DNA of 64,000 bases from Raillietiella orientalis (Eukaryota). The stretch covers positions 1,550,001 to 1,614,000 of the forward strand of contig JAYWIR010000021.1 of the NCBI GenBank assembly GCA_036172245.1. The letters run 5' to 3'. Below the pieces are notes generated by a model. The model saw nothing but the letters and a program-made list of their open reading frames with translations, did not search any database and was not told the origin of the DNA. Both the position numbers and the translations under genes were made by a program. Below, one piece after another: positions 11,125 through 42,990 of the stretch (position 1 is the first letter of the stretch; every line of letters begins with the position of its first letter).

Positions 11125-11199
11125 GCCACCCGAAGCAAAGCTGCTTCGTCTGAAAAGTACATATTCCGGGGCCGGGGCCACACAGAGTTGCTCCTGGGA

Positions 11200-12210: not shown

Positions 12211-12245
<35 letters not shown>

Positions 12246-18448: not shown

Positions 18449-20431
18449 CAGGAAATCTTCGGTTAGACCCGGAACTTTTTCCCGGAATCGTTTGAAAGCA
18501 TCACGAGGGAGACCAAGCGTTTCCGGAAGACGCCGGAGGGGCAGGTGGGGAGCGTTCCTGGAAGGTCGGGGCAGATGAAGCAGCTTGCACAGAATCCACG
18601 CAAGTGATCCTCTGCTCTCCGTCTCGAGTTTCCAGACCCGAATTTCCGCGATGGGCAAGGGCGAGGAGGGATCGGTGGTCCTCCTTGCTCTTGGGGACTC
18701 CCCCTCTTGGGGAAAAGACCAAGCGGAACGCTCGTTTTTTGAGAGGGGGGGGGGGGGAGACGGCAGCTCATGCGGAGCGTGGCTAGGGGGCAGTGGCACG
18801 AGGGAGGGCAGCCAGCTATTTCTAAAAGACTTCGAGGGAGGGAGGGGGGGGGGGGGGGAGAAGGAAGGTTCCTCGAGCCTGGACCACGAGGGGAATTGGC
18901 ACTTTTTCGAGAAGGCAACTACGCCGCTGCTGACCCGCTGCGGGGGGTGAGGGCGCTCCCCCCGCGGCCTTCAGACACTCGACGCGGCGCACGCGCCGTC
19001 CCTTTCCCCGTGTTCGTCTTGTTCGCGCGCCGACGCCGGCGCGTCGCTCGGCCCGTTCTGGTGCCGAGCCACTCGGCCGGAAGGCAGGCGGAGAAGACGC
19101 GCCGCCGCGTCCGCGAGCGCATTCCATCCTTCGAGGTCGCGGCCCGCTTCCTGCAGAAGAGCGCAAGGGAACGCCACGAGAAGCAGCGGCAGCAGTCCGG
19201 GTTTCCGAGGACGGTTTCCAGCGCCGCTCCCGGCGGGCGCGCATCAGACCGCCGCCCGGGGGGAGGAGATGACGGCTGCGAAACAGACCGCGAGTGTCAT
19301 CCGCCTTGCGGTGCAATACGAATCCTCTGCGTTTTGCACAATTAGCAATAATCTGTATTCCGCTGACCTGTGGGTTCCTGACTCTGGCCACGGACAGATA
19401 GTTCCATAGGTCGGAAATCATTTTTGGCCAATTATTCGAAACACATCGGGCGATCGCGCCTCGTGACCTCTGCGTCGTGCGTTGGGTGGTGGCCGGTTTT
19501 TTTTTTTTTTCTCTCGGAAGGACTGCACCAAGGAGAACGTTCCTCCTGTAGCAGCTTCTTTCTTCCTCCCTCCCTCTCCTTTTTCTCCTCCTTTCTCTCC
19601 CTCTTTGTCCGTGAGGAAAGGGGAAGCAGGACGAGGAAGCGGTGGGGAGCTGACGGAGGGACAAGCGAGCACGAACGGAAGTGGATTTCTGCCGTGTTCC
19701 CCCTGAAAGAGGTTCCGTTCCCGTTGGTTTCCCGAACCCGGGAACTTTTTCCGATCCGGCGGGGAGGGGGGTGGGGTTCTGCCCGGAACCGCCATGTCGT
19801 CGTCCCCGGAGGGGGGAAAGGGGAGGGATCACGGGCGCTCCGAGGCGCTCCGTTCCTTTGGGGAGCTCGGGAGAGAACGCACGCCGCCTCCCGAAACCAC
19901 GCGCAGCGGCTCACGGGAACGTTCGAAAGCGGGAGAACGCCCTTGCGGGGAGAAGGGGGCCGGCCCCGCATGTGCAACCTGCGCGTACAACTCGGCCTGC
20001 GTGCATACACGCCGTTCGAGCTTCCGACCACTGCGCGTGGCGAGATTTCTCGTCCAGGATATTCTGGACGTTTCGCTCCTGGGCTCCGCTCGTTGCGCGC
20101 CACCAGCCCGGGGAAACGGAGCGCCAGCATTCCGTACGAAGGCGGCGAGGCTTTCGAGCCGAGGACGAACTTTCCGGGGGGTTTCGCTTTAATGAGGATG
20201 ATGATGGCGGCAACGTAGCGTTAGCAAAACCGGACGGCCTTTTTTTTTTTTTTTCTCCTATGAAAATCAAAGTTGCTTATTTGTCTTGGAGACAGTGTCG
20301 AGTTGCCTCCGAAATTGGGGATATTGCATTTCCCATATTGCAGTAATATGAGTTTTTTTGTGTAGTTCAAATTCCGCCAAATGCAATCTGCAGCCAATCA
20401 CGTGCGAGTAGGAAAAAAGTTTTTTTTTGTA

Positions 20432-20432
<1 letters not shown>

Positions 20433-20465
<33 letters not shown>
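20433..20465. repeat. (TG)n microsatellite
   Basis: Direct inspection. Confidence 0.95.
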
Positions 20466-20467
<2 letters not shown>

Positions 20468-20621
20468 CGCGTGCAGCAGGTGTCCGCATGGAGGTGCAGA
20501 TGATATATGCTGCTCCTTAAAATGTGAACCGCCCATGAATCACGGACGGAGCATTTCGTCCACTTGGTTAACACCGTGTCGAACATGTGTACTCGCGAGA
20601 CAAATGAGTTTCAAGACACAA

Positions 20622-20654
<33 letters not shown>

Positions 20655-23600: not shown

Positions 23601-24229
23601 TGGGCACATCCAGAGCCACGTTCCGTCCGGAGCTGGAAAACGATTCTTCTGTTCAAACAGAATGAGAAGCAGCTTTTCCGTCAAGATGCGGGCAGACGAA
23701 GGGCTTTGGTGGCAGAGCCACGTGATGCCGGCGGAAGCGACTGACCTCCAGTCGCCGTTTTGCCAACGACCACCGCAACGCACGTCATTTTTCGACCGCA
23801 TGGTTTCACGCCGGTTGTGAGCCTTTAAACGGGGGCGGTTGAGTGTTGCCGGAGACTTCAGCTTCTCCGCGACCGATCTTCCAGATTCCCCCCCCTCCTC
23901 ACCTCAGAAAAAGGAGAGCATTCGGATCTTCGATCTTACCAGAGGAACTCTGCTGTCGACAGGACAGGCGCTCGCGATTCTTAGCCGAAATCGTGACAGG
24001 GCGGAATCGTCACGGAACCTCATTAGAGGAACGCCGTGCCGATCTTGACTTTGACCGTGCCCATAAACGTGGTGGTCAGGTCCATTAGGAAGCTTCGCAG
24101 GAGTTCACGCGAATCCGTGTCCTTGCGCGGTTGACGCAGATTGGCACACCCGCGGGTCCCCCCCCCCCCCCCGAGTCCGTTTTCCGTTTCGACTTGATCG
24201 GTTGATCCCGGTCGTGGGATGGAAAGTGA

Positions 24230-24333
24230 TGACGGAAGGTTCTGGAATTTTCTCTGGTCTCCGCATCGTTCGAGGCTCTTACGTAACGAGGGGTGACGAA
24301 ATGCTTCGGCACGCGCGCGCGCGGAAGGAGGGG
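24230..24333 (+). repeat. Copy 1 of duplicated ~105-120 bp non-coding module
   Basis: TGACGGAAggTTCTGGAATTTTCTCT ... ACGAGGGgTGACGAAATG ... CGCGCGCGCGGA; blocks shared with 26331-26448. Confidence 0.75.
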
Positions 24334-26275
24334 TGGCAGCGGAGACATTCGGGACCATCCTCCCCACCGCGGCCGCCGGGTTTTGCCTCAGATGCGTGTG
24401 ACTGCTGGATCGTGAAGAAGGAGAGGGACAGTCGCCCGACGAAAGCAAAGATGGCTTTGGGCTGAATCGAATTCTGGGCGCTTCCCTCCACTTCCGGGAC
24501 GGGCGCGCTCTCCAGGGACAAGGCGGGGGGAGTCATCGTTAGCTACAGTGAAATTCCTGCCGTAGTCGGTCGCAGTCCTTCTTCCGGTCCAAAAGAAAAA
24601 AGAATTGCCTATGTGTTTCGGTGGACAGCAGGAATCTGCGCCGCATCCCTCTTTTTGTACTCGCTGTTTGTCCTTCTTGACCACGATCCAAAGGTTCTGA
24701 AAACGAGGAAGGACAACTTCCGACTCTCCGGCCTTTGTCTGTCCTCATTGCTGCTGCTTCCACCCCGCGCTCAGCATCCGCATGCCTTTCTCATCCGAGG
24801 CTGACATGACGGCCAACCTATTCCTCCGCTTGCTGGACCTTTGGGTGAGGAGAGAGCACGGTGAACAGTGCAACGCCATCGTCATCGTTATTTTTGGCCG
24901 ACTGGCAGAGGAAGGGCTGCCCCCCAGTGGCCTGATGTTGTGCCGAACGTTTCTCTTTCTGCTCAGTTTCCTGGGATGCACAGCAAACGCCTTCCAGCCT
25001 CAGCTTGTCGGGTCGCCGTCTCGTTCCGTGACACGGACACCCGCCGCCGTCATTAACTTGGATCATCGTGCAATTCAAAGCGCCTGCGATGAATTCCGCG
25101 GACAGGAAGGATTCAGGTGCTCCTGCGGGAGGGGAGGCCGCCAAGATGCCTGCCTCCTTTCGCCTCTCCTTCCCATGTCCTAGGAGGTGCCAGCTAATTT
25201 CTGCCTTCGAGTTTCTGGTTGCAAGAAAAAACTTCCTCGCTCCATTTCTGCTTCCTCTTCCTACCCTCACTGTGCCTCCGCAGCCTCGAGTGGAACCGGG
25301 CAGAATCCTTCTTCGCCGTCCCGCGAAAGAAACGCCGCCGCACCCGTCTCCACCTCTTCCTCCTCGAGACGGGCAACTTCTCGGTTTTGCGTGTAGCTGC
25401 AGGAAGGATGCCTTTGGATCCCAGTCTTCGGCTACCGCGGTCTCCGGAAAGATGCTATCGGGGCAGCAGAGTCTTCGCGCCGGAGGAGCACCCGGCTTTC
25501 CGGAGCTGCGGATGCTGCCTTTAGACAGAGGACACTCTGGCGACAGCCATCCGTCCTCCCTCTTTCATGCCTCAGACGTGCATAGGGCGCCGGCAGGCTC
25601 TGCGACGCGGCGTCTCTTCGAAAACTGGCTCTGCCGCTTCCGGGGAAAATCCTGCCTGGCTACCAAGCGCGCGCGCACGGACGCTGCATCCACCGTCCTT
25701 CGAGATGCACCTACGAGAGGGGATGCCATCGCGTTCGGGCGGAAGAGGAAGAGGCTCTCTCTTGTGTCACACCGACGCCATGTGACTTTTTTCCGTCAGT
25801 GAATGAGTAACCGAGGACCGAGTGGGCGAGTTGGGGCACATATACCTGAAGGGAGGCGGGGTGGGTACGTTCCGTCTCATCGGGAGACCGAGCAAGCGGG
25901 TGCCTCCTTTCCAGAAGTTTCGGGTGCGCGCGCGCACGGGCTCCGAGCAGCTGCCGTCGGCGGCCAACTCCGCGGCGATCCCACCGCCCGTTATCTTGCC
26001 GAACTCTGCTCCCTTATCCACTGCCACTGCCGTATTCGCGAGCGACGGCGAGGAACTCCAGCCTCGATCGAGCACGCCGCGCAACAGGAGACGGAGCGCA
26101 GTATCCATCTGTCACGCGACCGTTGCCACCGCCGCAGCCTCAGTCGCTGCTGCAGCATGACGCAACGCCGCCGTGTGGCAGTTCTTCCGTCAGCCGCCAG
26201 CGAGCGCTCGCGAGCAGCGTCTTTCCTCGGCATTGCATGCGGGAGAGCTGCACGTATCTTCGTTGCCTAAGAGGC

Positions 26276-26322
26276 AGAGAGAGAAAGAGAGGGAGAGGGA
26301 GAGAGAGAGAGAGAGAGGGAGA
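26276..26322. repeat. Imperfect (GA)n tract
   Basis: Direct inspection; lies immediately upstream of module copy 2. Confidence 0.9.
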
Positions 26323-26330
26323 AACGATGC

Positions 26331-26448
26331 TGACGGAAAGTTCTGGAATTTTCTCTCGCTTCCTCCTCAATCCAAAAGGTTATGTGACGAGGGATGACGA
26401 AATGACTTAAGAGTTTCAGTTCGCGCGCGCGGACGGAGGGAAGGAGGG
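26331..26448 (+). repeat. Copy 2 of duplicated non-coding module
   Basis: TGACGGAAagTTCTGGAATTTTCTCT ... ACGAGGGaTGACGAAATG ... CGCGCGCGCGGA. Confidence 0.75.
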
Positions 26449-26847
26449 CCGAGGGAGACGTCGAAAGACACGCCTTCCCGTGATGCTTTCTGGGTTTCTT
26501 CTTTTCTTTAAGGGCAATAAAGGGAAGAGGATGAACTTTCCTTTGTTTCCCCTTACCTCTGGGATGGATTTCCGCGCCCGATGGAGCTCGGGCCCTTCTG
26601 CAGCCTGTCCCTCTTCTGAAGGAAACGCAGGAAGAGGGCGGGGGCGCGGTTGCTCCGACGGGTCCAGGGATGTCCGCAGCGGCACGCGGGGGGGGGGGGG
26701 GGGATATGCCGGGCCATCCACGCCGGGGCAGCAGCCGGCCCCTCTCTGCTCGCGAGCACGATACCAACGGCGACCGCGGTTCCCGCTGGCCTGCTGCTTG
26801 GTGCTGCCGTTGCCATCGAGGCAGCGAGTCCGGTAGCGGGGAAGGCG

Positions 26848-27224
26848 TGACGTCAGCGTTCGCACGCCACTGCTACCGCCGCGCGCGCGCGCGCGCCTAT
26901 TCGTTTGACGTTTTTTTTTTTTTTTTTTTGCCCTTCCTTTTTTGTGCCCCCCCCCCCCTTCCTCCCACCCCCCCTCCTCCTTGCATTTCCTTACGGCGCG
27001 CGATGAGGCGTCGGTGGCAACGCGCGCGCGTCGCTTCCGCGCCGTGCGTCAGCGGATTTCTCGAGGAAACGGAGCGCGCGTGCCATCCCGGAACGTCCTC
27101 TGCGGCGGCAGCAAGGTGCGTGGGAAAAAAGGGGGCGGGGATGGGTGGGTGGGAAGAGGAAAAGGCGTGGAGCGGTCCAGCAATGGGAATTTCAGCCCCG
27201 CGCCTCCTCGGATTGGCCGGGCGG
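26848..27224 (+). promoter_or_regulatory. Candidate CpG-rich promoter region of the FGF gene
   Basis: Perfect CRE TGACGTCA 26848-26855, kB-like GGGAATTTC 27185-27193, reverse CCAAT (ATTGG) 27212-27216 next to GC box GGGCGG 27219-27224, about 1.1 kb upstream of the FGF ATG. No TSS evidence. Confidence 0.35.
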
Positions 27225-27860
27225 GAGGGTGGTTTCGCAGGGGAGTGCGATGACCTTTCCGTGGGAGACCCAAGTCGTACCTCCGGGTGAGCGCGTGCCC
27301 CGTCCCGTCCCGACTTCCTCCCCAAGTAAAACCACCACGCCCGTCCGTGTCGGTCGCCGCCCGCCTTCGACCGCCGGCGACGTGGTGCACGGTGGCGGCG
27401 GCCTGCGAGGACGCGGCAGCCGCGGCCGGAGGGACGGCTCGCGGAAAGCTGCGCGGTCGCTGCCGGGGAGTGATCTCGTCGCTTGGGAGGAAACGGCTCC
27501 CCCCCTTACCTCCTCCCTTGCCTACCCGCTCCTCCGGAGTCCGTCCAGCTCCCGCCCCACCCTCTCCTCTTGCTCCCTTCTTCCTTGGCTGGCACCTTGC
27601 CGCCTCCGCCGCCTGCGGATGGACGCCGTCCCTGCTCCTGCGGCACCGCGCGTGTCCCGTCCTCCCTGGAGCGACGCGCGGCCACGTTTTCAATCGGATT
27701 CGCCCGCCCGTCCGCCCGCCCGCTCATTCCGCCGGGTAGGAATGACGAATTGACAGCCCCCGCGGAGGTTGCGCGCGCGCGAACCGTTCAGTCGCGTTGG
27801 TTGCCGGCAGCATCGGATCGCCGCCGGTGCTTCTTTTGATTCCCCCCCCCTTCTCTCCCC

Positions 27861-27922
27861 CTCCTCCTCCTCCTCCTCCTCCTTTCTCTCCTCTTTTTTG
27901 TTCGTCGTCGTCGTCGTCGCCA

Positions 27923-27963
<41 letters not shown>

Positions 27964-28036
27964 ACCACCTCTGCCGCCCCCGTCCTCGTCGTCGTCGTCG
28001 TCCTCGTCGTCGTCGTCGTCCTCGTCGCCGCCGCAT

Positions 28037-28074
<38 letters not shown>

Positions 28075-28077
28075 GCC

Positions 28078-28130
<53 letters not shown>

Positions 28131-28163
28131 AGCCGCAGCCGCCGCAGTCGCCGCCGCCGCAGC
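27861..28163. repeat. Compound trinucleotide repeat (TCC)n/(GTC)n/(GCC)n/(CAG)n
   Basis: Direct inspection; 150-450 nt upstream of the FGF start codon. Confidence 0.95.
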
Positions 28164-28315
28164 CGTTCGCGGGCGAGGATTTTCCCTCCCCCTTCCGGCT
28201 TCCTCCTCCTCCCTCTCCTCCTCCCTCTCCTCCTCCCACTCCGTCCGTCCTTCCCTCCCTCCCGCCTCATCCCTCGCTCCCAGAGGGCTCCCATGCGAGC
28301 GGGGGGCCGGCGGTC

Positions 28316-28580
28316 ATGACACGGCGTCGCTCCGCCTCTCCGCTCCTTTCCTCCCTCGTCCTGCCGCTGTGCGCGCTGGCGCTCGCCTGCCTCTGCGACA
28401 AGACGTGCAGGCAGCCGGGCCACGGCTCGGCCTTCCCCTGCGGGTTCCACAGCTCCCTGGGCGCCGACCAGGCGTACCTCCTCCTCTGCAACTCCCACAG
28501 GCTCAGCGCCATCCGGCTCGCGGGCGCCAGGAACATCTCCGCCACCGTCCTCAAGAAGAAGACCACGCTGGACGAGTTCT
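28316..28580 (+). CDS. FGF: FGF exon 1 (signal peptide and first beta-strands)
   Basis: gtcATGA start; donor T|GTGAGT at 28581; third codon positions almost all G/C. Confidence 0.75.
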
Positions 28581-31500
28581 GTGAGTCCCATTTTTTTTTT
28601 TTTTCTCTTCTTTTTTCTCCTTCTTCTTCCTTCCTCTTCCCTCCTTCCCTCCCCCTTTCGCCTTCGCTCCTCTTCCCGTTCTTTTCCCCCCTTTGCTCCG
28701 GTTTTTCGTTTTTCCCGCTCTTCTTCTCCCCTCTTCCGGGTTCCGCTTCCTTCCCTCCTGCCTCGCTCGCACAGCCGTCCTCCTCCTCCGCTCCTTCTCG
28801 CCCGGGCGGTGCCCCGGGAAATAGGGGGGGGGGGGGGGACGGCGATGTGGATCTCTGCACGAGAACGCAAGGACGACGGACGACGAAGAAGGAGCAGAGG
28901 ATGAGGAAGGTCCACGTCGGAGGAGATGGCGCGTGCGCATAAGTGGCTGCCCCATCATACGCCGCGGAGGCTGAATCAAGAAAGCAGGGGGAGGAGGAGG
29001 AGGAGGAGGGGGGGGAGGAGGAGGAGAGGAGAAATCGATCCATCCGCAAGGCTGCGCGCGCTCGGGGATTTCCCGCGTTCGCTGGAGGGAAGCAAAGAGG
29101 AGGAGGAGGAGGAGGAGGAAAAGAACACGTCGTGAAGTCTCCCCTCCCCGCTTCCTCCTTGCTTCCCACCGTTCCTCCCTTTTTCTCCCTTCGAAATTTT
29201 CCTCCTCCTCCTCCCGGACGGATTCGGCGGCGGCAGTGTGCCACGCGCGCTCGGGCGTTGCACGCAACACAGGGAGAATGCGCGGAGTCTGCCACCTCCC
29301 TCTTCCTTCCCCTCCTCCTCTCCCTGCCGTGCTCTCTCCTCCTCCTTCCACCGAAGCCTTACCCCCGAGATACGAGACGCCGTCTGCTCCGCAGTCTCTC
29401 CCTCACGCGCGGAGGAAGAGGACGTGCGCGCGTGCGCGCGCGTTCCGTGTCCCATGGACCGCTCCAGCAGCCCACCGATTGATCTGCTGTCCGCTGGGGA
29501 CCGATAAATCAGCGGCTTATCGTTCCACGTCCGACAGCTTCGTCGTCCTCTGGCGACCGCATCCCGGTCGGTCGCATTGTTCGCGCGCGCGCGCGCGTGC
29601 GAGCCGAGCTCAGTGAACGAGCGCTCCCGCCCGCTCCACCCTCTCCTACCCCATCCCGTTGCCAGCGGAGAAGCCGCCGCCGCCGCTTCGACATCCGGCG
29701 GCGGCGGCGGCGGCGGTGACGGGCAAACGCCTGCTGTCTCTCCCTCCCTCCCTCCCTCCCTCCCTCCCTCCCTTCCTCCCGTCCGTCCCTCCCTCCCCCT
29801 CCCCCGCTGCCGGAGGAAGGACACGCAGCAGTCCGAAAGGAGGAAAGCGTCCTCGGAACTCCCGGAGCGAACGGGGGAAGGGGGAGGGAAAGTGCCCCGC
29901 AGGAGGAGGAGGAGGGCGAGCGGCTGGCCACCCCGCTCATCCCCCTTTGACCGTCGTTTACACCCCCCTTCCATCTTCGCGAGGAGTTGGGATGAGGGGC
30001 TGCTGCAGGTCTTCCGGGCACCGCCGCCCTCCCTCTGCTAGGGGGGATTCGCCCTCTGCCGCCGACGGTCGCCGAGCGGGCAGGAGAGCAGGGAAAGGAG
30101 ATTGGGGAGAGAGACGAGGGGCGCAACGAGCCTTCAGAGGGGCTCATTCCCTGCTTCCTTTCCTCTCGGGCTGCTGCATGCCCTCCGGAACCCCTCCGTC
30201 TGTCCCCTTCCTTCCTGGCGACCGAGGAAGCGTTCAGGTCCCCCCCCCCCACCCCACCCCACCTCCCATCATCCCCTTTCCCCTGTTGGCAGTGTTTCGT
30301 GCGCCCCTCGTCAAGCACGGCGGCAGGGCGGAGTGGGGGGCACGAGGGCTGCCTCTTTTCCCTCTTTCGTGCGTGCGCGGCACCACCGCGTCCTACGATG
30401 AGGAAGGGGTGAAGGGAGAGAGGACAGACTCCAGGAGCACGCGCGTGTGCGCTTCCCTGCTCGAGAGGGCGACTCTGCCGTCCTTCCACGGAGACCTTTG
30501 CGTGCTTCCCCCTCTCTCCCGTCTCGCCGTGTGCCTCGAGGCGGCAGCGACGGTGGAGGAGAAGGGACCGCGCGCAACACGAGCAGGTGATCGTATTGCG
30601 CGCGCGGTGGAGAGGATGAGCTGCGCGCCCTCCGCCTTCTCCAGTGGGGACGGCGGCGCTCCTCCCCCGTACTCCTCAAGCCTTCCCCTTGCACCCGGGT
30701 CACCGTCACAAACCCCCCCCCCCCCCCTCTCAAGCCTTCCCCGTGGGTTTTTTTTTTTTTTTCTTTTGCTCTCCCCGCCGAGAGGACCGCGGGATCCATC
30801 CAGGACGGGAAGGAATGGGAACGGGAAGAGAATGCGCGTCGCAGCTTCACCTGGCGGGAGCAGCGACGGCCCTTCCGAAAAGTCGGCGGAGAGCGACGTG
30901 CCCGCCTTCGCTTCCCGAACCCCTTGGCGCTCAAAGGTCCTTCCCGCGCTCTTCGCTGACGACATCCCTCGAAAGTCGTCGCGACGCCCGCTGTGGGCGA
31001 TCCGTGGAAAAGGAGGGATGGGTCGGAGAGGGAGAGCAGCAGCAGTCCCGTCCTCCTCGAGTTCCCGCCGGTTGCTCGCTCCAACGCACGCGGAGGGAGA
31101 GGCGTGTGGTGGCACGGCACCGTACGCCTCTCCCTCCGCGTGCGTTCAAGGGAGTGGCTGCAGCGAGGGGGGGGGGGGGGATCATCCCTTCCCCCTTTTC
31201 ACGGGGCGTGCCTGAACAGAGAACGAGCCGGAAAGGCGTGGGACTGCCGGACGGCAGCCCGCGCGACGGTGGCGGCGGCGCCGGCGCAACGCGTATGCAG
31301 GAAACGGTCGAACCACGTGCCGTTTCCAGGAGACGAAGCTGCGATGCGCGCCTCTCCTGCCTCTGCCGTTTCCTTCTCCCTCCCTCCCCCTTCCCATCTT
31401 CTTTCTCCGTCCGTCTCCGCGTTCCGAGTCGATCCCGCCAGCACGAACCGATAGATCGGACCCGGTCGGCGCTGTGCCTCCCCGTTCACGGCCACTGCGA

Positions 31501-31626
31501 GCCCGGTGACTCGTGCCCGGCTCTTCTTCCGACGAGGCCACGACCATCGCCCGCCCCCGACGCCGCTTGCGGAATTCTTTCCATGGCTGCAGCGATTTTT
31601 CCTTTTCTCTTTTCTCCTCCTCCTCC

Positions 31627-31665
<39 letters not shown>

Positions 31666-31714
31666 GGGGGTTCCCCCATCGTTCGTGAGCGTTTTTTGTT
31701 CGCCTTGCAGGAGT

Positions 31715-31797
<83 letters not shown>

Positions 31798-34700
31798 CCC
31801 GCTTGCTTGGCGGACCCCCCCCCCCTCCGGGAGGTATTTTTCGTCGAAGAACGCCCCCCCCGTACGCTCTGCGCCCGCCTTAACGAAATGACGGCTCCGT
31901 CGCGCGCGGCGATTTGCCAGTTGTCGGCAGGTGTCGGTGGCATCAATCGATGACGGCGGTGACGTCCGTTACGCAAGGAGGCTCGCAGCAGTCCATCTCG
32001 TTTGGCAGTTCCCTTTTGCCTGCTCGGAGCCCGCGGCTGTCTTGCACCGCGCACTGGTGGCGCCGCTGCCTCAGAGACTGGCGAGCGGGCACCGTAGGTG
32101 GACCGGCAGCGCGACTCCATCCATCCCCTGTCGTTGCCACCCCGCGCTCGCCGTCTCCCCTCTTCCCTGCCACCTCCGCCGCCGCAACGCTGCCCCCATC
32201 CGCAGCCCCCTGCAGCTGCAGCTCGGCTGGGATCGCTGGTGCTCTGTGCCTGCTCTTCTGCGCGTCGTCCCCAGAGCTGCTTGGAGCGCACGCGTCCCGC
32301 CCACGCTCGGCCGCGAGGGGTCCTCGGAGGGGGAGGAGGACTCAGGACGAGGAGAACAAGGTCGGTTTCGAAGTGCGCCCGACCTGAGAGCTGTCTCCTT
32401 TCGCAATGGGGGCGCGGGGGGCAGCCTACTGAACAGTTCCCCGGGGAAACACGGGCCTGCCTAATTGTCCCGGAAGTATTCGTTGCGGACCCCGGGGGAC
32501 ACTGCTGTCACCGGATGGCATCTTCAGTGTTACAGTGATGGGCGCACCGCTGCTGCTTGCCGAGTGGGAGCGGAGTGGGATGCAGGGAACGGCGGACGGA
32601 GCAGTCGCTGCTGTCCCGAAGAGCAGAGAAGGAACCTCGCTCGTGTTGCGGGAGAAGGGGGAAGCCATGCCGCGGGTCTCCGGGATGGACCTCCCCAGCG
32701 AAGATAGGGGGACGAGTCGGGGAGCGGGCAATTTCCCGTCTTCCTACCTCCTTCCTCCCGTTTCCCGTTCGGCGACACTGCCCCTTCGGCGGGATGTTCC
32801 GCAGACGCCCTCTGATCCCACAGAGGCCTCGAGGTGCGGACGGAGCGAACTCTTCGCGCATTCGAGTGGGGAAGGAGACAGTGGGAGAGGAAAGGGGAAG
32901 ACGGGGGGGTGATGGTAACCCAAGACCGAAGGCGATCGGCGCGCTGCGCCGCTCTCTCCACGACGAACTCGGGGGAGGGGGGGGGGGGAAGAAGAAGAAG
33001 AAGAAGAAGAAGAAGAAGAAGAAGAAGAAGAAAGAAAGCAAGCAGCAGAAGGAGGAGGAAGAAGAGGAAGGAAACACGACGCCCGCTGCATTGTTCTTGA
33101 AGACTGTCCGAGACGACCCCTCGTGCGCACGCGAGCGAGCGCGCGTCGCGGAACGTCCCGGCGGGTTTTTCAGCCGCGTTCTCTTTCGCCGTCTCCTCCG
33201 ACAGCTCCCCCTTTCGCGCGCGGCGGCGGAAGCGGCGACGGCGCCTGCGTGATCAACGGCGAGCACGTGGATGCGAGGAGGAGGAGGAGGGGGGGAGAGA
33301 CGGGGTAGAGAGGGGGGAGATGCGAGTGCGCAGCAGCGAAGGCGGCTGGGCGCAGGCAGGCAGGACCGGCGGCAGCGATTGGGAAACCCGAGATGGCCAA
33401 CCGCGACGACCGACAACGACCCTTTTGGCTGCGGATGCCTGCAGCCGAGCGCGCGCTGGCGGCGGCAGTCGCGAGGTGTCCGAGGGAACGTTCGGGCGCT
33501 GGCGGGAAGAAGGGGAGAGGGAGGAAGAGGAGGATAGTAGCGACGAGAGGTCGCCTTCCTTCCTGCTTCTCTGCTCTTTCTTTCTCTCCCTTCCCGGATC
33601 GGAAGACAGAGAGAGACCTCGGGGCTGGACTATGGAAGAAGCCACCCCTCCGTTTCTGCTTTCGGGTGACCATAGTCGTGCGTCCAGATCATCCGGGGAC
33701 AGTCCATCCGCCACCCTTCGGCCTGCCCACCCCCTTCTTTCCTCGCCGGCTTCCCGTTTAGCCTGCCCCCACCGGTCTCGGACTCGCGCGGCACACAGCC
33801 TCTGGTCCCGAGCATTTCCCTTCAGAGTGCGCTCGCTTTCAAGGGAGCAGCAAGGGCGCCGCCGTCAACGACAGCTTCCTTCCTTGGGCAGGCGAGAGCT
33901 GTTCCATCCTTCTGGCTATGTTTTCCCCTTGACAAATACCGGATGGATAGGAAGGAAGAAGGTGGGGAAGAAGCGGAGTAGGAGCAGCCTCTTCTGTATG
34001 GATGTGTTCGCCTCCTTACACTGAAGGCGGGTGCTCCGGGCCGAAAGGCGGCGTCCCGCACTCTTCTCTGGAACCGCTCCCGGGAGTGAGGGTGGCAGCT
34101 TTGCTCCTCATCCCATCGCACGCAATGCGGAGCCAGGACATGCTCTCGTTCTGGGTTTCCGGCCTCAGCCGGAAGAGCGACCAGGAAACGAGGGATCCGT
34201 GAGGAAGAGCGAAGGGTTCGTGAGGGTTCCACCCCTCCTCCATCTCCTCCATCTAAACTCCCGTAGGCGCCTGGCCACTCGACTCCGCACAGCTGTCACG
34301 TTTCCTCCCCCCTCTAGTGCTCCTGGGTGCGCACGTGCCACTCTGCTCCTGCAACGAGTCGCTTCGCGTGCGGCTGGAATGGCCGCGTTCGTCGAGAACT
34401 CGCCCATTCCCGAGTGAGTCGCAGCCGGAAGGATCCATGGAGGAAGAGCTCTCTGCAGCTGTGCCTTCGTCGGGGAAAGGGGGAGGGGGGATCAAAGAAC
34501 GGCAGCAGCCAGCACCTAAAGATACCGTCGCCTTCTCTCCCCTTCCTTCCCCTCCCGCCTTTTTGATGCTATGGAAGACTCGTGCCTTCAGGCAGAGTGG
34601 AGGACCGTACCTACGTCTTCCCTTCTTCTTCTTCCCCTTCTTTTTTTATTCTGCTGCGGAAAACTCTTGTAGACATCCCTACTGGTGGAGGCGCCGAGTC

Positions 34701-37700
34701 CACCAGCAGAGGCGGCAATATGAAACCGTCGGGAAGGACGCAGAGCCGTGACTCCGTTCTGGTCGACAGAGAAGGGGCGAGAGGGAAGGGGGCGGCGCAC
34801 GTTTCTCCCTGAGTAAAGATCCCTTCGTCCCAGAGGTGGGAGAAGCTGATCCAGAAGAGGTTCCGCAGAGACGACGACGCCCATGAGCAGGGCTTCTCGC
34901 GCGCCCCACCTCGCCGCCGTCGTCTCCGTGCTCGTCTTCGTTGCCAACGGCTACGCCTTCCCCTTCTCGCGCCCGTTGAGAAGGGGGCACGTCCCTCATG
35001 GGACGATTGTTCTTCAATCCTAAAATGGAAGGAAAGAGGGAGATGAAGGTTCGTCTCCTCCCGGCACCCTCAAGGCCCCCGCGTCCCCTCAGCAGACAAT
35101 GGGAGAGGACAGAAAGCAGAGCGCTTCTTCCGAGGCATGAGGGAGCGGAAAAGGCGGTGCTCCCGCATAGAGGAGACACGAGTCCACCTCATGCTCGCCG
35201 AGTGACGACAAGAGAACGGCGCGTGCGCCTCGAGGGGGGGGGGGATGATGTCATGGAAAGAGTGGATCGCCTAAAGGGGCACGGGCGCTCGAGTATAACG
35301 GAGAGAAGCGAGGATAGGATTGGAGGGCCCCCGCAGTCCTGTTTTATTGGCCCGATGGGGGAAGGGCAGGTGGGTCATTTTTTCTGCTATCCGGGTACAG
35401 GCGCGTGCGATCAGAGGGTCTGGAACAGAGAGAACGCGAGGAGAAGGGATCCGCAGCAGGGAACCTGACGAGAGGTGAGTGGCCGCGGCGTCAGCAGGAA
35501 GGAGAGAGAGAGAGCTCCCAAGGAGGAGTTACCATTCCGGCTTACCGTAGGGGGTGGAGGGGCGCAAATGGGGGATACTCCGAAGCCGGAGGAGATGAGG
35601 GCAGTGGGTCTCGGAAAGGAGGAAGGAGTGGTGCACCCTATTCTCCCCCCGGTAGGAGGCGAAGAGAAGACCCATCCTTCTCTCTGACCTTGTTTCTCAT
35701 CATAGCTGTGGTCCTTCCGGCAGGCCGAGGCGTAGGTCACCGCCGTCTTCGTCGTCGCGCGCTGCGGTTTCCTTGGGGGCGACGAGGAAGCAGTGGAGTC
35801 CTGACCTCCTCCCCTCCTTTCTCACTGCAGCCCTGCCACGCTTGTTCTCCGACAGGAGACCTGACTGGGCACCCGGCTGACTGAGGCGCTGACCGAGCAC
35901 CCTGCCAGACCTCCTTCCTGTCATGGTTCGCTGCCGTGTTTCTCGCTTCGGCAGGACCCGGAGAGCCATTCTTCTCACCCTTCTCGCTGCTGTAGCTCCC
36001 TATTTCTTACCCGAAGGCAGCAGATTTCGGCTGCTCCCTCCCCCAGTGCCTTTCCTTCTCTCGCCAGTGAGCTTCCGCAAAGGACGACTTCGAACGGTTC
36101 CAACACGGCTCCTCTTGCGGCCGGAGGGGCGTCAAGCTCTTTCCCCACGGAGAACGGAGCGCCAGCATGGGGAGGGGGAAGGGGGACAAAAGTTGCAGCC
36201 ACCCGCTCGCCTCTCTCCTCCCACTTCTCCTCTCCCCATCCCCTCACACGGTGACAGGCGCGCCAAGGAGGCGTCCGGATGCGCGCCATGCAATGGTTCT
36301 CGCTCATATGCACGCGTTCCATAGAGGTTTGTGGACACGCGTCTGCCTGCCTGTATCTTCCTCATTCCTTACCCTTTTCCCGTCCCTCTTTTCTTTTTTC
36401 TTTTGTTCCTCCTTTCCTTCCGCTGCCTCTGCGGACCGGGAGTTGACGTCGTCCGAACAGCGGAGTGCTTCCTGAAGAAATCTACCCTCTTACCGCACGT
36501 CTCTTCCCTCCTCCTTCAGGCTTCTTCCCGGATCGCTCCCGGACCCTCGGACGGAGAGGTGCTGCATCTCCCCTCTCCCCAGTTCCTCCCTTTCCCAGAA
36601 CGGGAAGGAGACTATCGTCTGCCGTCGCATCTGTCTCCGTCCATCGGGAGACACGCGTTGCCCTGCCCGCTTCTCCCGATGGACGAGGGAGAAGCCGATC
36701 TTCCTCGCATCTTGCCAGCGGATGAGAGACTCATCAGGCCGCCTCCGTTCTTGAGGCGCGCCCCTCTTCCCGGCTTGCGCCAGCATCCGAAGCCGCGAGG
36801 CAGTAGGCGGGCGGGCTCATGAGTCACGGCTGCTTCCAGAGGCCGTCTTGATTGCATGTGCGAGTGGGATTTTGTGCCTTCTTCCTTGCCTACGCTGGCT
36901 CCTGGCGGTTTCTTTCGAGGGACTCTCCCTGCCCTGCTCTGGGAAGAGCGGAGGAAGGGGAAGGGGGAGGTTTCCTCAGAGCAGCCTCCGTTCACGGCGG
37001 GACGGGAACAATCTCCAGGAGTCTCCCGGGCCAGGTCCCTCTCCAAGCACTCCTTCCTTAATCCCACTTTTCCACTTCCCCCAGGCTCTCCCTGGCTCGC
37101 GGCAGAAACCGCGCACAGGAGAGGGGGATGCCGCCGCAAGCGCGGGCAGACGGGCGATCGTTGGCCCCTCCTCCCTCCGACCTGAACTCTCCTTCCGAAG
37201 GTCCACACGCCACTGTTCTTCTCTTCCAGATCTCTTTTACAAGTTCCAGTCCTTGCAGAGGGAGACTGGCGACTCCAGGCACAAGTACCGGTACGTCGTC
37301 CGCTTCTTCTCTCTGCCGCTGCGGCGTTACCTGTGCATGCGCAGCAACGGCAGCTTCTACTCCTCGGTAAGCCAGCGCAGTCAGGCGCTCGAGGCGACCC
37401 CCGAGCCGGAGCGGTCAGTCGGACGCGCGTGCAAGATGACCTCTCTCTTCCTTACCCTCCCGCTGCACGCGTCCTTCCTTCACCCGCGGCGGCGCCGGCG
37501 GCGAAGACTTTCTTCCTCGACCCGACCCATCCGCCAGTAGGCGGCCCACGGCGCTGCATCTCCTCCTCCAGCCTTCGGGAAGTGCAGAGGCTTCCTCGAG
37601 GGAGTTTGGCCGAGCCTTTGCTCTCCTACCCCTTCCCCTTTTCTTCCTTCCGGAGAGGTGATAGGAGGGGACGACAGGCTCTCCTCCTCCCCGCCCACCC

Positions 37701-38302
37701 TCCACGCGCCCCGGCCTTGAGGGGAGTAGGGGCGTCTTCCGCGGAGAGGAACCCATGCGGGGCGAGAAAGGAAGGGAAAGGGGGGGAGGGAAAGGAGGAC
37801 ACTCCTGGTCCGTCCCCATCTTCACCCACCCTCCCTTATAGGCGCGCGTGTTTTCCAGTGCGAGGCCAACCGGCACTGCTTCTTCTACATGTCCAACGAG
37901 AGACTAGGCTTCTCCTTCATCTACTCGGCCCACCTGGCCCACACCCGCAACCTGACTTTCTACCTGGGTGCCCAGCGGGGACTCGTCAAGGCCTTCAGGC
38001 GCACCAGCCGCAGGACCCTCTGCACCCTGCAGCAGACCGACTTCCACGCCGTCTTCCTGCGCCACCGCAAGAGGATCCACCAGCTGGCAACTCAGTGCCG
38101 CGTGGACGCCTCCGTCCACGAGGTTTCCTACGCCTCACTGGCGCTTGCGGCGCGCCACCAGGGGTGGAGGCGTTCAGGACGGGTGTCTCCGGGGACTGCA
38201 GGCGCCTCCACAGGGAGGAGGAGGAAGTGGGGGAGGGACTCTCCCGGAAACGGTACGAAGTGGGGCGGCTTCGCCCGGACACGAAGGAACAAGCCCAGCT
38301 GA
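28316..38302 (+). CDS. FGF: Divergent secreted fibroblast growth factor, 281 aa, join(28316..28580,37230..37366,37859..38302)
   Basis: Signal peptide MTRRRSASPLLSSLVLPLCALALA; core YLLLCNS...NISAT, VVRFFSLPLRRYLCMRSNGSFYSS|CEANRHCFF, GFSFIYSA, FYLG. GT-AG sites give phase 1 then phase 0 introns as in canonical FGF genes; exon lengths 265+137+444=846 nt. Subfamily not assignable. Confidence 0.82.
31718..31795. repeat. (CT)n/(GA)n microsatellite in FGF intron 1
   Basis: Direct inspection. Confidence 0.95.
32988..33032. repeat. (GAA)n microsatellite
   Basis: Direct inspection. Confidence 0.95.
34998..35468 (+). mobile_element. Possible Tx1-type ORF1 remnant in FGF intron 1
   Basis: TTRERRVRL ... 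PPQSCFIG ... FFCYPGTGAC resembles the Tx1 ORF1 segment preceding the zinc knuckle (PxxFxIG..YxGQ..C). Confidence 0.3.
37230..37366 (+). CDS. FGF: FGF exon 2
   Basis: Acceptor ttcttctcttccag|, donor TCG|GTAAGC; encodes VVRFFSLPLRRYLCMRSNGSFYSS. Confidence 0.85.
37859..38302 (+). CDS. FGF: FGF exon 3
   Basis: Acceptor ttttccag|; CEANRHCFF...GFSFIYSA...FYLG, basic tail, stop TGA 38300-38302; AATAAA at 38641. Confidence 0.85.
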   Translation, partial: CEANRHCFFYMSNERLGFSFIYSAHLAHTRNLTFYLGAQRGLVKAFRRTSRRTLCTLQQTDFHAVFLRHRKRIHQLATQCRVDASVHEVSYASLALAARHQGWRRSGRVSPGTAGASTGRRRKWGRDSPGNGTKWGGFARTRRNKPS

Positions 38303-39252
38303 CAGCGGGGGTGCCCGCGGCAGCGCTGGCGCCAGGGCGCCACGTCTAGTCACGCCTGCAAGCAGGTGACGAGAGGGGGATGAGGAGGAGGGACATCTTG
38401 CCGCCTCCCCCCCTCCCCCCGGTGAGCCAGTGCCCGGATGGTGCCGTCCGGCGGCGGCGCAGAGCCCACCATCACCACGTGACGTGACCCCCAGGTCCAA
38501 TCTCCCGCCCCCTTCCCCCAGCTGCAGTCCTTTTGGGGTTTACTTCGCCCTTCCCCACCCTCTCATCCCCATCCCTCTCCCGGCGCCGGGTGCGTCCCGC
38601 CTGGGTAGCCGCGCGCTCTGGTAGCGGAGCGAGTAGGAGAAATAAAGGAGGGAAGGGCGCTCGCGCCCCCGGCGGCCCTTCCCCGGGTCCCGGCGACGCA
38701 GCCCTCTCCGACGATGCCAAGAAGCTCCCCTTCCTTGCCCGCTTCCTTTCCTTGTCCTCCGCCCCTTCTCCTGGGGAGACCGCGCTCGGCTTCTGGGGTT
38801 GCCTCCTCCTGGCATCGGCTAACAGTGGGAGGGGGGGGACCAGGGGGGCAGCTAGGTGGGGACATCAAGCTTATGAGCGGCGCCAGCGCGTTCCCACCGC
38901 CTCCAGAGGGAGGGAGGAGCCCTACCGGTCAGCAGAGTCGCCCTTCGTGGCGCCGAGGTCATCGGGAAGGAATCGAGGCCACTGAGTACCCATGCTCCTT
39001 CCCAGGAGGAATGTTGAGCGCGAGTTCAAAGCCCCTTGCGCCCGGCTTCACGCGCAGTGGTGGCCCCGGCGGAGGTGCTTCCAGAAGTTGAGCTTCCGAC
39101 AACTTCGTAAAGGAGGGAATATTGGGGTGAAGGGGGGGTAGGCGACGAGCGGTGGGAGCAGCATCAGCAAGGAAAGAAAGAAGAGCAACAGATGGACGCA
39201 GCGGGCGGCGAAGTTTGCATCGCCTTCTGCCCGCCTTTGTTGTCCTCTCGTG

Positions 39253-39283
<31 letters not shown>

Positions 39284-40899
39284 GCCCCTGCCTGATCGGT
39301 GGCGCTCTGACGCCGCCGCACCGTGAGTTCTCTCCAATGTCTTCGCGCCGACCTTCTGTGGGGACTGCACCTGGAGCTCAACCGCTTCTGATATGCCACG
39401 CGCACTCCGAGCACACGGAAGGAGAACCGCGACACCGCTGAGCGGTCGGGTCGGCGTCGTCCTTGTGAGCCTTTCGGGCCTCATTTTCCCTCAGCGGGCG
39501 TTGAGTGCTGCCGTCTTTTCCAAGTCTCTCCCGACCCTCGCGCCTGCATGCAGGAGTGCCCTTCGGTTCGTCTCGGCAGGGGCAAGGAGGAAAGCCACGA
39601 TCTTTCTCCTGCTGACGCGATCTGCAAGGATCCCCCTATCGACAGCCTATGACACTTTCACCTGTGAGCGCCCATGGCCGTCCTCGCAAGCATCTCCCAA
39701 AGACTTCCGTCCTCTACGTCCGCTCTTGCCCCTCTACTTCCTTATCTGCTTCTCACCTCGAGTACCCCTCCCAGAGCTCCGGTCCTTCGTTCCGGAACCC
39801 CTCCCCTCGCTGGGCAGCGGGGACGTCTTCGTCTCCTCTTCTATCCCACACGCCTTGGATGGCTTTCGTCCACAGCGAGTAGCCTCCGCCGAGCCCCAAA
39901 TCGGAAGGACGGCAGCAGTGCAAAACCCGTCCGCCCTGATCCGCTTTTAAACTCCAGGTCGAGCGCATGACCCCGCCCCATCCCTCCCGCATCCCAGCAG
40001 ACACGAGATCGGAACCTCTCTCCGGAAGGAGGAGGAGGCGACGTCTCTGCCTTCCTCTCCGGCACTCCTGAGGGCTCGGCGGCGGGACCGTGGAAATCCC
40101 TCTTCGAGGATCCCAAGGGGGTCTCTTCTCGACTAGTTGGCCCGGTGATGCATAGGCCGCCCCCGAGGATTCCCTGCTTGCCGTCTCCTGAAACGGTGGG
40201 TATGTCCCTGTTTCTGCTGTCTCCGCGAGAAACGGGCTGCTTTCTTCTCGCTGCCCCCAGCCATCGACCTGTCTCAAACCTGAGGCCCACCTCCGAGGCT
40301 GCAACCCATCGTCCGTTGCCGCGTCCTTTTTTCTCCAGTCACGGTCATGCCGAAACGCTCAAACCGGCGGCGGGCTTCTCCGCTTCCTCTCCCACCCCGC
40401 CCCTCCCCTTCCCGACTCTGGTTGGTGTCATCACATCGAAGTCAGAATGCGGTGGTCACGGCCTTGATCTCCTTGCTGGATATTGTCCTCGCGTCTCGGC
40501 GCGCACCCTAAGCCTCAGATCACCTAGCGAACATCACCCTGCATTCCGACCTGGGTCCTCTTCCTCTCATCTGTCGGCTAGAGGTCCCCACTATCCCAGG
40601 AATCTGCATTCCTCGCGGATTGCAAGCGCGCCGTTCCTGCGATTCCCTCCCTTCCCCACTTAATCAGAACAACCCTTGACCCATGCAGCCACTCCGGGAG
40701 CGAATCTCAGTGCGTTTCTTGTGTGTGGCCCCGCCACTCTTCTTCACCCCGTTGCGCTGAAAGCCAATGTCTCCTGCCCGCCTCATCCGCCGCGTACCAA
40801 ACCAGCTCATCCTTAATCGCATCACCGGCTGGCTCTCCTCACTGTAACTCTTAATCCCCGGTTTCTCCCAATGCGAGGTGATCCCTGCATCCGCAACCG

Positions 40900-42990
40900 C
40901 AATGTTCGATCTACAATGGCCCCTGCCACCGGTGCTAAATTCTTCTCCAAATAAAGGGAGGCATCGGTGTGTCTAACCTACAGTTCCTCGTTTCCTACCT
41001 CCGGATGTCGCCGAATGCACGATACGAGCAGACGCAGCGGTTCCCAGGAAGAGCTGAACGCGCTGCATCCGTTCGCCACTTCAGTCTCCGCGCCTTCTGC
41101 CGCACACATCGCGAGTGCTCCAGCGCTGACCTCTTGCGCGTAGCGTCGGGCCCGCACGTGTGCTTGCCTGAGCCCCTCCCACGCTCGCGCGCGCGCGAGC
41201 ATCATCGAACTCTGGGCGTTGAGGAAGGCAAGCACCTCCTCCTCACCCATTTTTCCTTGGCTCTCACCTTCATGGAAGCGCACGGCGCAAACCGTCGCTG
41301 CTCAGAGTTGTCTCTCCTCTCCGCCAAACAGAGCATTCGTTCCGACGGGCAGGAGCCGCCACAGATCCCGGCGATCCCGAACATCAAGTAAGAGCACAGC
41401 ATCGGGAACAGACCAAACCTCCCCACGAGCCGATCCCCAAAAGTCTTGAGTTCTTCTCCTTCGGTAATGGAGTAAGTGGAGCGCGAGTACGGTTTCGAGC
41501 AAGGCCTGCAAGCGCGACCCTCTCCACCAACATCGACAACATCCAGTGGACCCATCCAGGGGCACCGGCAGGGGAGCTTCCGCGTACTGAACACTGCCGC
41601 GGGGACGACTTTTCCGGAGGCATCTCCCGAACGCACCCCTCAGTCAAGTTCGTTCGCGAAAGTGGTCGATCCCTGCCGCTGCTGCACAGAAGGGATGATC
41701 GCCCCGCCCTTAGGCAGCACTGAACGCCATCGCTCCTTCGAATGCCGCCGCCGTCTTGGCTGGAAACCGGAGGAGCCCAAAACTTGGTTCTCCGAATCGG
41801 AGATCAGAATCATCTTGGGAAGCCTCGAATGGGCCACTTTTCTGGCACGTAACTGCTTCGCCCTCGTCACACACGCACAGAGATACGAACCGGTCTGACT
41901 TTTTTCGTGCTGCTCTTTGCTGACCTATCGGAGCTAAAGATCGCGTGGACTAGCCGCCTTCGCCCCGCGTGCGCCACCTTCATATCCTCCTTCTCTGAAC
42001 ATCTCGGAGGTCACCTCCGCAAATACCCGTTTGGGAGCCCGAGAGAGAGGAGACGCATGCAGGTACACATCCTCTAGCCCGCCGTTTCCAGAGCACATCC
42101 AGCTCTCTAGAATATGCCGAGCCTGTGCCTACGTCGGCCTCTCGACGAATAGGTTGCAACGACCATTACAGCTCACGAGTCAGAAGCACGCGGCAAGTAC
42201 GCCGCTTCCACTTGGTTCCCTGCTCCCTGACCGCTCTCTTGTCGCCTCTGCCAGTCCTCACCCGCAGCGGCTAATCAATCCCATCGCTACTCGCACCCAC
42301 CGTTCCGGTTCTAGCACCACCCTCACCGAACCATGGAGAAGCGGGCCCCATTATGTGAGCTCCAGCACGCCACAACGACCTGAGCTGACAATGATGGCAA
42401 TGCTTCTGATCTAACCTGCCTTCTCCGCAGCTCTGGGAACTGATTGCACGTGACGAACAAAGAGAATCTGCTTTCATCGGAAACAAAATCACCTAAGAGT
42501 TCCATGGCGCCTGACAGTGGTCGATGTCTTCCGTCAAGAGCAACAATCACCGGAAGAAGTCCCAGCAGATTCAAAAGGTGTACAGGGTTCTCGGTACCAC
42601 GTGCAGAATACGAAACCACCGGATCTCGATGTTGGTCCCCTATAACTTGATTTGAACTCCATGTAACCCCGATTCCCGGATCCATGGAGTATGATACAGC
42701 AAGAGCTGATGATGATCAAAAGTGACGGCAGTAAGCACACTGCACCCCACTTCCATGAAAGCTCGTACTGCCCAATCCTATCTCAAAACCTACCACGAAC
42801 AAACTCGCCTGCCGTTAACGGGAGTCCCCATAGGAAACCTGTCTCTGTCTCAGCTACTCATCCAGTTCAAATGCAAGCTAAATCTCGCATCACCGTCCGT
42901 CCCTGTGGTCACCACGAAACGAAGGAGTCTCATATGGTTCCCAGTTTTCCTCACGCCAGTTTCCTACATATCAGCAAACCGACGTAAGTA
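40900..42990 (+). mobile_element. Possible heavily decayed LINE remnant
   Basis: Only weak traces (IRIILGS near 41800, CWSPIT near 42630 resembling WRPISL); no intact motif. Confidence 0.2.

Follow-up and report, generated by a model that had tools for sequence, protein, structure and literature searches.

A strongly diverged, cysteine-rich gene of Raillietiella orientalis that very probably encodes a fibroblast growth factor, possibly of the Branchless type

Introduction

Arthropod fibroblast growth factors (FGFs) are sorted into FGF1/2, FGF8/17/18/24 and Branchless (Bnl) types, the last of these having an origin that the same source calls unknown (PMC3420111). Both Bnl and the viral FGFs (vFGFs) of baculoviruses are described as guiding migrating cells through the FGF receptor, FGFR (PMC7552049), and a C-terminal glycosylphosphatidylinositol (GPI) signal has been described for Drosophila Bnl (PMC9203819). 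Two FGFs are reported for Parhyale (PMC5111886) and two for Daphnia (PMC3420111), and the third FGF of Strigamia is presented as either FGF9/16/20 or Bnl (PMC4244043), an ambiguity which shows how hard the Bnl slot is to assign. Here, we describe a gene on the forward strand of a 64,000-nucleotide stretch of the Raillietiella orientalis genome (assembly GCA_036172245.1, contig JAYWIR010000021.1, positions 1,550,001 to 1,614,000), hereafter the window, whose product very probably belongs to the FGF family and which, judging from sequence comparison, may be this animal's missing branchless counterpart.

The systems to which the gene is compared below are Drosophila Bnl and AcMNPV FGF, FGF18 (4CJM) and FGF8b (2FDB), and human FGF1. 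The disulfide bridge of the FGF8 family joins Cys109 and Cys127 in FGF18 and is said to restrict FGF18 to extracellular function (PMC3996155). Two introns, of phase 1 and phase 0, are given as ancestral in amphioxus FGFs, and the FGF paralogues of appendicularians are reported still to be recognised by the FGF hidden Markov model at 1e-7 or better (10.1101/2024.08.30.610304). Divergent FGF paralogues are already known; in the present gene, single exons lie below the reach of Pfam. We found no account of a cysteine-rich or hidden crustacean FGF in the literature, supplements and most subscription journals lying outside that search.

A three-exon gene encoding a probably secreted, cysteine-rich protein

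The locus is a real three-exon arthropod gene that encodes a cysteine-rich, probably secreted protein. As proposed in the initial annotation, which was made from the letters of the window and called the gene a hidden, lineage-specific FGF ligand, the three exons (Table 1) splice in frame to 281 codons: they form one open frame, every border is GT-AG, and the codon bias agrees. The GC content of third codon positions (GC3) is 0.95 in exon 1, 0.91 in exon 2 and 0.93 over the first 70 codons of exon 3, with 0.42-0.55 at second positions (GC2), and the last ~47 residues, after about residue 235, are less coding-like (GC3 0.65-0.85, GC2 0.75-0.9). A six-frame scan of the 64 kb found 19 coding-like windows, of which 15 lie on the candidate exons in frame, 1 is an antisense shadow and 3 fall elsewhere. 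Those elsewhere are confined to 19052-19201 (+) and 14681-14785 (-). The genome itself is of arthropod type, since 14 of 16 candidates for the cuticle family PF00379 match above the cut-off.

The spliced protein holds 11 cysteines, of which 10 follow the likely cleavage behind residue 24 and the other belongs to the hydrophobic N-terminal segment, as well as four N-glycosylation sequons (N73, N128, N165, and N265); the first count of 10 mature cysteines and four sequons was therefore correct. Hydropathy peaks over residues 14-26 (Kyte-Doolittle 2.75), the sole strong hydrophobic stretch of the protein, and the signal peptide is called from this peak together with an Ala-x-Ala site at 22-24. 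The mature protein is strongly basic (45 Lys+Arg versus 12 Asp+Glu; pI 10.9), with 6 Arg/Lys among residues 174-186, which form a basic loop near the end of the core.

Exon 1 is assigned because it is the most coding-like segment, carries a consensus donor and supplies the phase needed by exon 2. It scores 0.57 for coding likeness, the next of the 98 phase-1 donor segments between 12000 and 37200 scoring 0.37, and from these properties we infer the exon 1/2 junction 28580/37230. No coding-like window was found within intron 1 by a scan whose unit is 35 codons, so that smaller exons would escape it. Upstream of the ATG, the stretch 27746-28315 (+) carries runs of GTC, CAG, GCC, and CCT repeats, along which the frame of exon 1 is open for 190 codons; its translation is poly-Ser, Gln, and Pro without an in-frame ATG, and it is probably 5' untranslated region (UTR).

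An intronless genomic copy confirms the second splice junction

Searched at the protein level with exon 3, the genome (210 Mb, 491 contigs) returned the exon itself, one strong second place on contig C53 (E 8.8e-8) and four weak places. The place on C53 is a decayed, intronless copy of exon 2, exon 3 and the 3' UTR, with 74% identity over 333 aligned coding bases, in which exon 2 directly abuts exon 3 at exactly 37366/37859 and intron 2 is without counterpart; beyond the stop codon, 38321-38489 aligns with the copy at ~70% in a DNA alignment. The spliced model aligns to the copy with a score of 277, versus 180 for the unspliced locus, and among 625 shifted junctions none scores higher, the only tie being with a sequence-equivalent shift. 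The exon 2/3 junction is thus confirmed by the copy, and the exact loss of the intron means that a spliced transcript most probably existed. Like a processed (retro-) pseudogene, the copy shows exact intron loss, 5' truncation, a 3' UTR and frameshifts; unlike one, it has no poly(A) tail in the 200 bases 893521-893720. The copy is 26% diverged. It carries five indels in the 333 aligned bases, 4 of them frameshifting, and larger deletions in the tail, whereas the gene in the window stays open.

The copy starts at the exact first base of exon 2, the DNA upstream resembling neither exon 1 nor intron 1, and is therefore silent on the exon 1/2 junction. This start, and the escape of exons below 35 codons from the scan, leave some room for a model with a wrong 5' end, whether through an overlooked small exon or because exon 1 is part of a different transcript. 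The lack of a third-position excess between candidate and copy (23/112 against 29/111 and 35/110) would suit a gene silenced recently; it also counts against the leading reading given below and, with the poly(A) tail not seen, against the spliced transcript. We consider all of this highly improbable, given that exon 1 is the most coding-like of the 98 segments with a consensus donor and the right phase, and that splice sites and frame are intact in the gene while the copy is frameshifted.

Evidence for membership of the FGF family

A genome-wide search with the Pfam FGF family (PF00167; cut-off 24 bits) gave five matches, namely three exons of an FGF1-like gene on C18, one exon of an FGF8-like gene on C26 and a weak match with a stop on C4. 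It gave none at the candidate locus, which fits the suggestion that the gene had been missed by automated annotation, as does the absence of relatives of exon 3 from two large protein searches (see below). The FGF1-like gene has the 104-nt exon 2 that the initial annotation took as usual, so that exon 2 of the candidate, at 137 nt, is indeed enlarged; it has Thr in place of the family-wide Cys, and the best PDB matches of its exon 3 are FGF1 chains, FGF1 variants crowding the PDB. The only two PDB matches of exon 2 of the FGF8-like gene are FGF18 and FGF8, and the first two core exons of this gene escaped the genome-wide Pfam search. An FGFR-type kinase exon is also present: one kinase pattern returned nothing in the genome and a second found this exon on C25; FGFR1-4 account for 59 of the 60 PDB sequences listed for it, the single best match being labelled EGFR.

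One argument for membership comes from a profile of nine FGF sequences, which gives the spliced protein 23.8 bits, a score reached by none of 3000 shuffles (maximum 7.4) and by none of 3000 shuffles that preserve YLCM (maximum 12.2); profile bits and E-values apply here to one sequence and a hypothesis stated beforehand. With YLCM masked, 11.4 bits are left. Taken by part, exon 2 scores 8.7, exon 3 7.2 and the two joined 26.6 bits, and the two best of the 943 open reading frame (ORF) pieces of the window are those that hold exon 3 and exon 2. A profile of the C18 and C26 sequences, which were picked independently of the candidate's motifs, gives the spliced protein 8.1 bits, with 1 of 2000 shuffles as high. 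The profile similarity to FGF cores spans residues ~118-192 only. In addition, both introns, the first as predicted, occupy the same alignment columns as in the C18 and C26 genes and have the same phases (1, then 0), and C141 aligns with the family-wide Cys, which is C127 in FGF18. Three coding exons, the exon 2/3 splice, FGF-like exons 2 and 3, an FGF intron pattern and an FGFR-type kinase are established.

Several results weigh against the assignment. None of the three candidate exons, scanned singly, matched PF00167 at E<=10, and 3 of 4 control exons from the C18 and C26 FGFs did; among these controls, exon 1 of the FGF8-like gene went unmatched and its exon 2 reached just 15.7 bits. Exon 1 of the candidate has -0.5 bits with the nine-sequence profile and ranks 11th of 98 donor segments with a five-sequence profile of FGF exon 1, the sensitivity of which is uncalibrated. 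Single-sequence profiles of C18 and C26 give 1.1 and -2.2 bits, with 405 and 4429 of 5000 shuffles as high. In hhalign, the probabilities were 0.2% and 27%. The baculovirus FGFs were gathered with a YLCM-type motif (the three scanned are FGFs by Pfam, and two were identified by name), and this choice of viral references biases both the profile and the tree discussed below. A less biased five-sequence profile, still including one row found via YLCM-type patterns, gives 11.5 bits and, with YLCM masked, 1.1 bits (225 of 3000 shuffles as high). Lastly, Met145 stands in place of the Glu four residues after the conserved C141, a loss that the initial annotation had spotted. This Glu is present in FGF1, FGF10, C18, C26 and the vFGFs of nucleopolyhedroviruses (NPVs); granulovirus FGF domains are also without it, and it is therefore not strictly defining.

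That the protein is no FGF but another beta-trefoil (fascin/FRG1, MIR, or lectin type), or a secreted orphan rich in cysteines whose FGF-like motifs arose by chance, appears very unlikely. By Atlas language-model features, all 10 of the 10 best matches of exon 2 fall in the beta-trefoil clan, all below 0.9 and with low recognition, which is weakly a lead for FGF; the best named ones are nevertheless FRG1, fascin, and MIR (0.87-0.89), and FGF occurs only within a mixed cluster at rank 13. Single exons have no FGF match in Pfam or the PDB, and the profiles scored were all of FGFs. Against such a protein stand the two introns at FGF positions and phases, joined exons that outscore the sum of their parts in the FGF profile, and a signal-peptide-like N-terminus, unlike that of FRG1 and fascin, which are intracellular. 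For residues 1-80 of exon 3, the best Atlas matches (0.77) are unnamed clusters. An AlphaFold model of exon 3 alone (pLDDT 45) has no structural match at Z>=5, and because a true FGF exon 3 modelled alone also fails (pLDDT 55, pTM 0.32), single-exon models are uninformative. Taken together, the proposal of an FGF ligand is partly borne out, with support from the custom profiles, from intron positions and phases and weakly from the Atlas placement of exon 2, and none from Pfam.

Exon 3 matched none of 407 protein candidates of 259-2000 aa at E<=1 and none of 1.84 billion protein representatives at E<=0.001, and none of 510 matches to an exon 3 pattern in metagenome contigs held up. A two-exon alignment search for cellular FGFs retained 0 of 88 candidates and 0 of 43 viral stretches; 2 of 171 metagenome stretches matched and, on reading, proved unrelated to FGFs. 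PDB sequence searches returned nothing with exon 2 and, with exon 3, Cas13a (E 0.35), a chance match. A weak exon 1 match on C1 (E 0.27) was likewise dismissed as chance, its DNA similarity being not above that of shuffles; exon 2 has a weak match on C20 (E 0.45).

Placement among the FGF types

With the first two arthropod FGF types filled by the C18 and C26 genes, the candidate may fill the Bnl slot. Our leading reading, which we hold tentatively, is that it encodes a secreted, signalling FGF ligand and that this is most likely the Branchless-type FGF of the animal, in strongly diverged form. Its sequence leans to baculovirus vFGF/Branchless in several respects; a signal peptide, predicted in the candidate, is a further common feature. 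Between C124, in the YLC-type strand, and the conserved C141 there are 17 residues, as in three alphabaculovirus NPV vFGFs, the corresponding figure in C18 and C26 being 18; FGF1 and FGF10 chains also have 17, so that this spacing argues against FGF8 only. The spacing noted in the initial annotation agrees with FGF1 and FGF10 chains; the Cys pair and the features of exon 3 are closer to vFGF/Branchless than to the FGF2 stretch used there.

Before the last strand, the candidate has R-x-L-x-x-L (residues 186-191), 16 residues past the FYL at strand 10. The motif is absent from C18 and C26; it lies 17 residues past FYL in vFGFs (3 of the 3 NPV vFGFs shown) and, as read from a primer table, also in fly Bnl (PMC13041799), which has FYL at strand 10 by the same primers. 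Its use as a subfamily mark is our own reading of the sequences, with no published definition. Given one residue fewer in the turn after strand 10, K178 and R186 fall on R357 and R365 of Bnl, predicted heparan-sulfate contacts (PMC13041799). The Cys that follows the core in vFGF is matched in the alignment by C214. When YLCM is left out, exon 3 has z values of 3.7-4.3 to three close NPV vFGFs, and of 2.0 to C18 and 2.5 to C26. A tree of 8 rows places the candidate with 5 viral domains, apart from C18+C26, with support 94/97; the rows of tree and scoring set contain no cellular Bnl sequence.

Other comparisons tell against a Branchless-type placement. The z values of exon 3 to a fourth NPV vFGF (2.5) and to granulovirus domains (2.7-2.8) bring no real gain over C26 (2.5), and the candidate's branch of 3.9 changes per column drew a long-branch warning. 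The extra Cys that precede and follow YLCM, invariant in 6 of 6 viral rows, are absent; this mark is known from viral rows only and has no published definition. There is no hydrophobic GPI tail, the C-terminus being basic, although an alternative last exon is possible and the NPV vFGFs gathered also end without such a tail. The candidate further differs from Bnl in having no long N-terminal region, from both vFGF and Bnl in its four Cys before the core, its 11-residue exon 2 insertion and its basic tail, and from NPV vFGFs in being unseen by Pfam, which gives two of them 81-86 bits. Searching the genome for a better Bnl with two vFGFs gave one match (E 2, with stops) and none, respectively; these queries also missed C18 and C26, and this is therefore no proof that Bnl is absent elsewhere. 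In three long baculovirus FGF genes there appear to be two tandem FGF-like domains, the first assigned by motif only.

It is somewhat unlikely, in our estimation, that the gene is a signalling FGF of another descent, namely a lineage-restricted, fast-evolving duplicate of an FGF8 or FGF1/FGF9-type gene, the alternative that comes nearest to the initial annotation. C124-C141 matches the FGF8-family bridge, in which a strand 6 Cys is paired with the family-wide Cys, the intron phases are the same, and exon 3 has GFS and YLG motifs in common with C26. However, C26 has the spacing of 18 and an exon 2 of 107 nt, against 17 and 137 nt in the candidate, and a profile of C26 alone scores below zero. 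With FGF1/2 (C18 and human FGF1), the candidate has the three-exon layout and phases 1 and 0 in common, and with FGF1 chains the spacing of 17; unlike it, C18 has an open frame upstream of the core without a hydrophobic segment (maximum 1.08). Duplication in general is favored by the lack of exon 3 relatives among the 1.84 billion representatives and 407 candidates, by the precedent of divergent lineage-specific FGF paralogues in appendicularians, and by the occurrence of a long loop before strand 10 in FGF10 too. What it leaves aside is that R-x-L-x-x-L and the post-core Cys are common to vFGF and are not found in C18 or C26. The description of the gene as lineage-specific has not been borne out, and the gene may instead be a fast-evolving Branchless orthologue.

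Possible mode of action and implications

If the product is a Branchless-type ligand, exon 1 would be joined to exon 2, and the N-terminal ~24 residues would direct the protein into the secretory pathway. Residues ~55-200 would adopt a beta-trefoil fold closed by a disulfide between C124 and C141, similar to that of the FGF8 family, and the other eight Cys would pair in the oxidising lumen, stabilising the core of a drifted sequence; four further disulfides are proposed because the number of mature Cys is even. N-glycans may help secretion, as they reportedly do for the vFGF of BmNPV. The Arg/Lys-rich loop 174-186 and the basic tail could bind heparan sulfate and hold the protein near its source, a retention that would replace the GPI anchor of fly Branchless. 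The protein would then activate the animal's FGFR and guide cell migration or outgrowth.

The Glu after the conserved Cys has a role in receptor binding. Its loss, strands 1-3 that cannot be recognised and the insertion in exon 2 would all be compatible with a decoy or with an altered receptor interface. That the protein derives from an FGF but has stopped activating FGFR, and serves as a heparan-sulfate or receptor decoy or competitor or as the ligand of another receptor, is distinctly unlikely in our view, even though strands 1-3 are without FGF signal, sequons lie inside the core and the mature protein is very basic. Granulovirus FGF domains, which may be active, are without that Glu as well, the DNA around the gene is GC/CpG-rich like that around the FGF8-like gene, and ligand and receptor may drift together.

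A third FGF invisible to the standard family search means that arthropod FGF counts can be too low, and the candidate provides a query for finding relatives of this hidden FGF. As a Branchless orthologue, it would bear on the origin of this guidance cue within the small arthropod FGF set. The most far-reaching version of the Branchless-type reading, a hidden Branchless-class FGF that is disulfide-locked and glycosylated, with no GPI anchor and an altered receptor face, is unlikely as a whole. Were it true, two-FGF crustacean-type arthropods such as Parhyale and Daphnia might harbor a gene of this kind that escapes Pfam and BLAST, and Branchless would be older than, and independent of, tracheae, its ancestral role being testable in a group mostly without them. 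A decoy would make an unusual FGF, and a gene that is neither would be a useful but ordinary gain in annotation.

Genomic surroundings

The candidate lies at the center of a GC- and CpG-rich domain (Table 1), and the FGF8-like locus on C26 is set in similar DNA (GC 0.56-0.67; observed/expected CpG 0.88-1.13). The codon scan detected no other gene in 14000..42000, where non-candidate ORFs of 14000-41000 were not scanned against Pfam.

Table 1. Coordinates of the candidate gene, its copy, related genes and neighboring features (positions without a contig are those of the window; o/e, observed/expected)
Feature	Location	Strand	Details
Coding exon 1	28316..28580	+	265 nt; open frame, phase-1 donor GTGAGT
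Exon 1 contents	signal-peptide-like segment ~28316-28387		Cys cluster C25/C27/C31/C42; presumed strands 1-3 with C58, sequon N73
Intron 1 (predicted)	28581..37229	+	8649 nt, GC-rich, many simple repeats
Coding exon 2	37230..37366	+	137 nt, AG...GTAAGC, ends in phase 0
Exon 2 contents			Insertion before YLCM strand, C124, sequon N128; 33 nt longer than 104-nt type
Intron 2	37367..37858	+	492 nt, GT-AG, phase 0
Coding exon 3	37859..38302	+	Starts after AG, ends with TGA
Exon 3 core contents			C135, C141, sequon N165, FYL, basic loop, R-x-L-x-x-L with C189; then C214
Exon 3 tail	~38159-38299	+	Basic, low-complexity; N265, RxRR site at 274
Probable 3' UTR	38303..38646	+	AATAAA at 38641; predicted polyadenylation site
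Decayed intronless copy	C53:892984-893527		Exon 2 + exon 3 + 3' UTR
FGF1-like gene	C18:1305384-1309895		Ordinary three-exon layout
FGF8-like gene	C26:1758066-1760105		107-nt exon 2
FGFR-type kinase exon	C25:2760065
GC-/CpG-rich domain	14000..42000		GC 0.61, CpG o/e 0.96 (positions 1-13000: 0.37, 0.62)
Long open frame	593-1414	-	GCV_H match
COG7 exons	8514-10338	-
PPME1	51187-52160	-	Protein phosphatase methylesterase 1
zf-RVT match (weak)	54434-55222	+	E 0.008; probably end of a non-LTR retrotransposon
COX1-like fragment, decayed	~61450-61610	+	Pfam E 0.078; probably nuclear copy of mitochondrial DNA
Dispersed repeats	45498-45763, 48877-49064, 49489-49562

The best relatives of the PPME1 gene reach only ~73% over its conserved half, and the protein collection searched therefore contains no close species. 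Of the repeat 45498-45763, three copies at ~71% lie within 80 kb of C53. Elsewhere in the genome, an inverted duplication of at least 2414 bases with 99.75% identity lies on C1, near 1858453 and 1889126.

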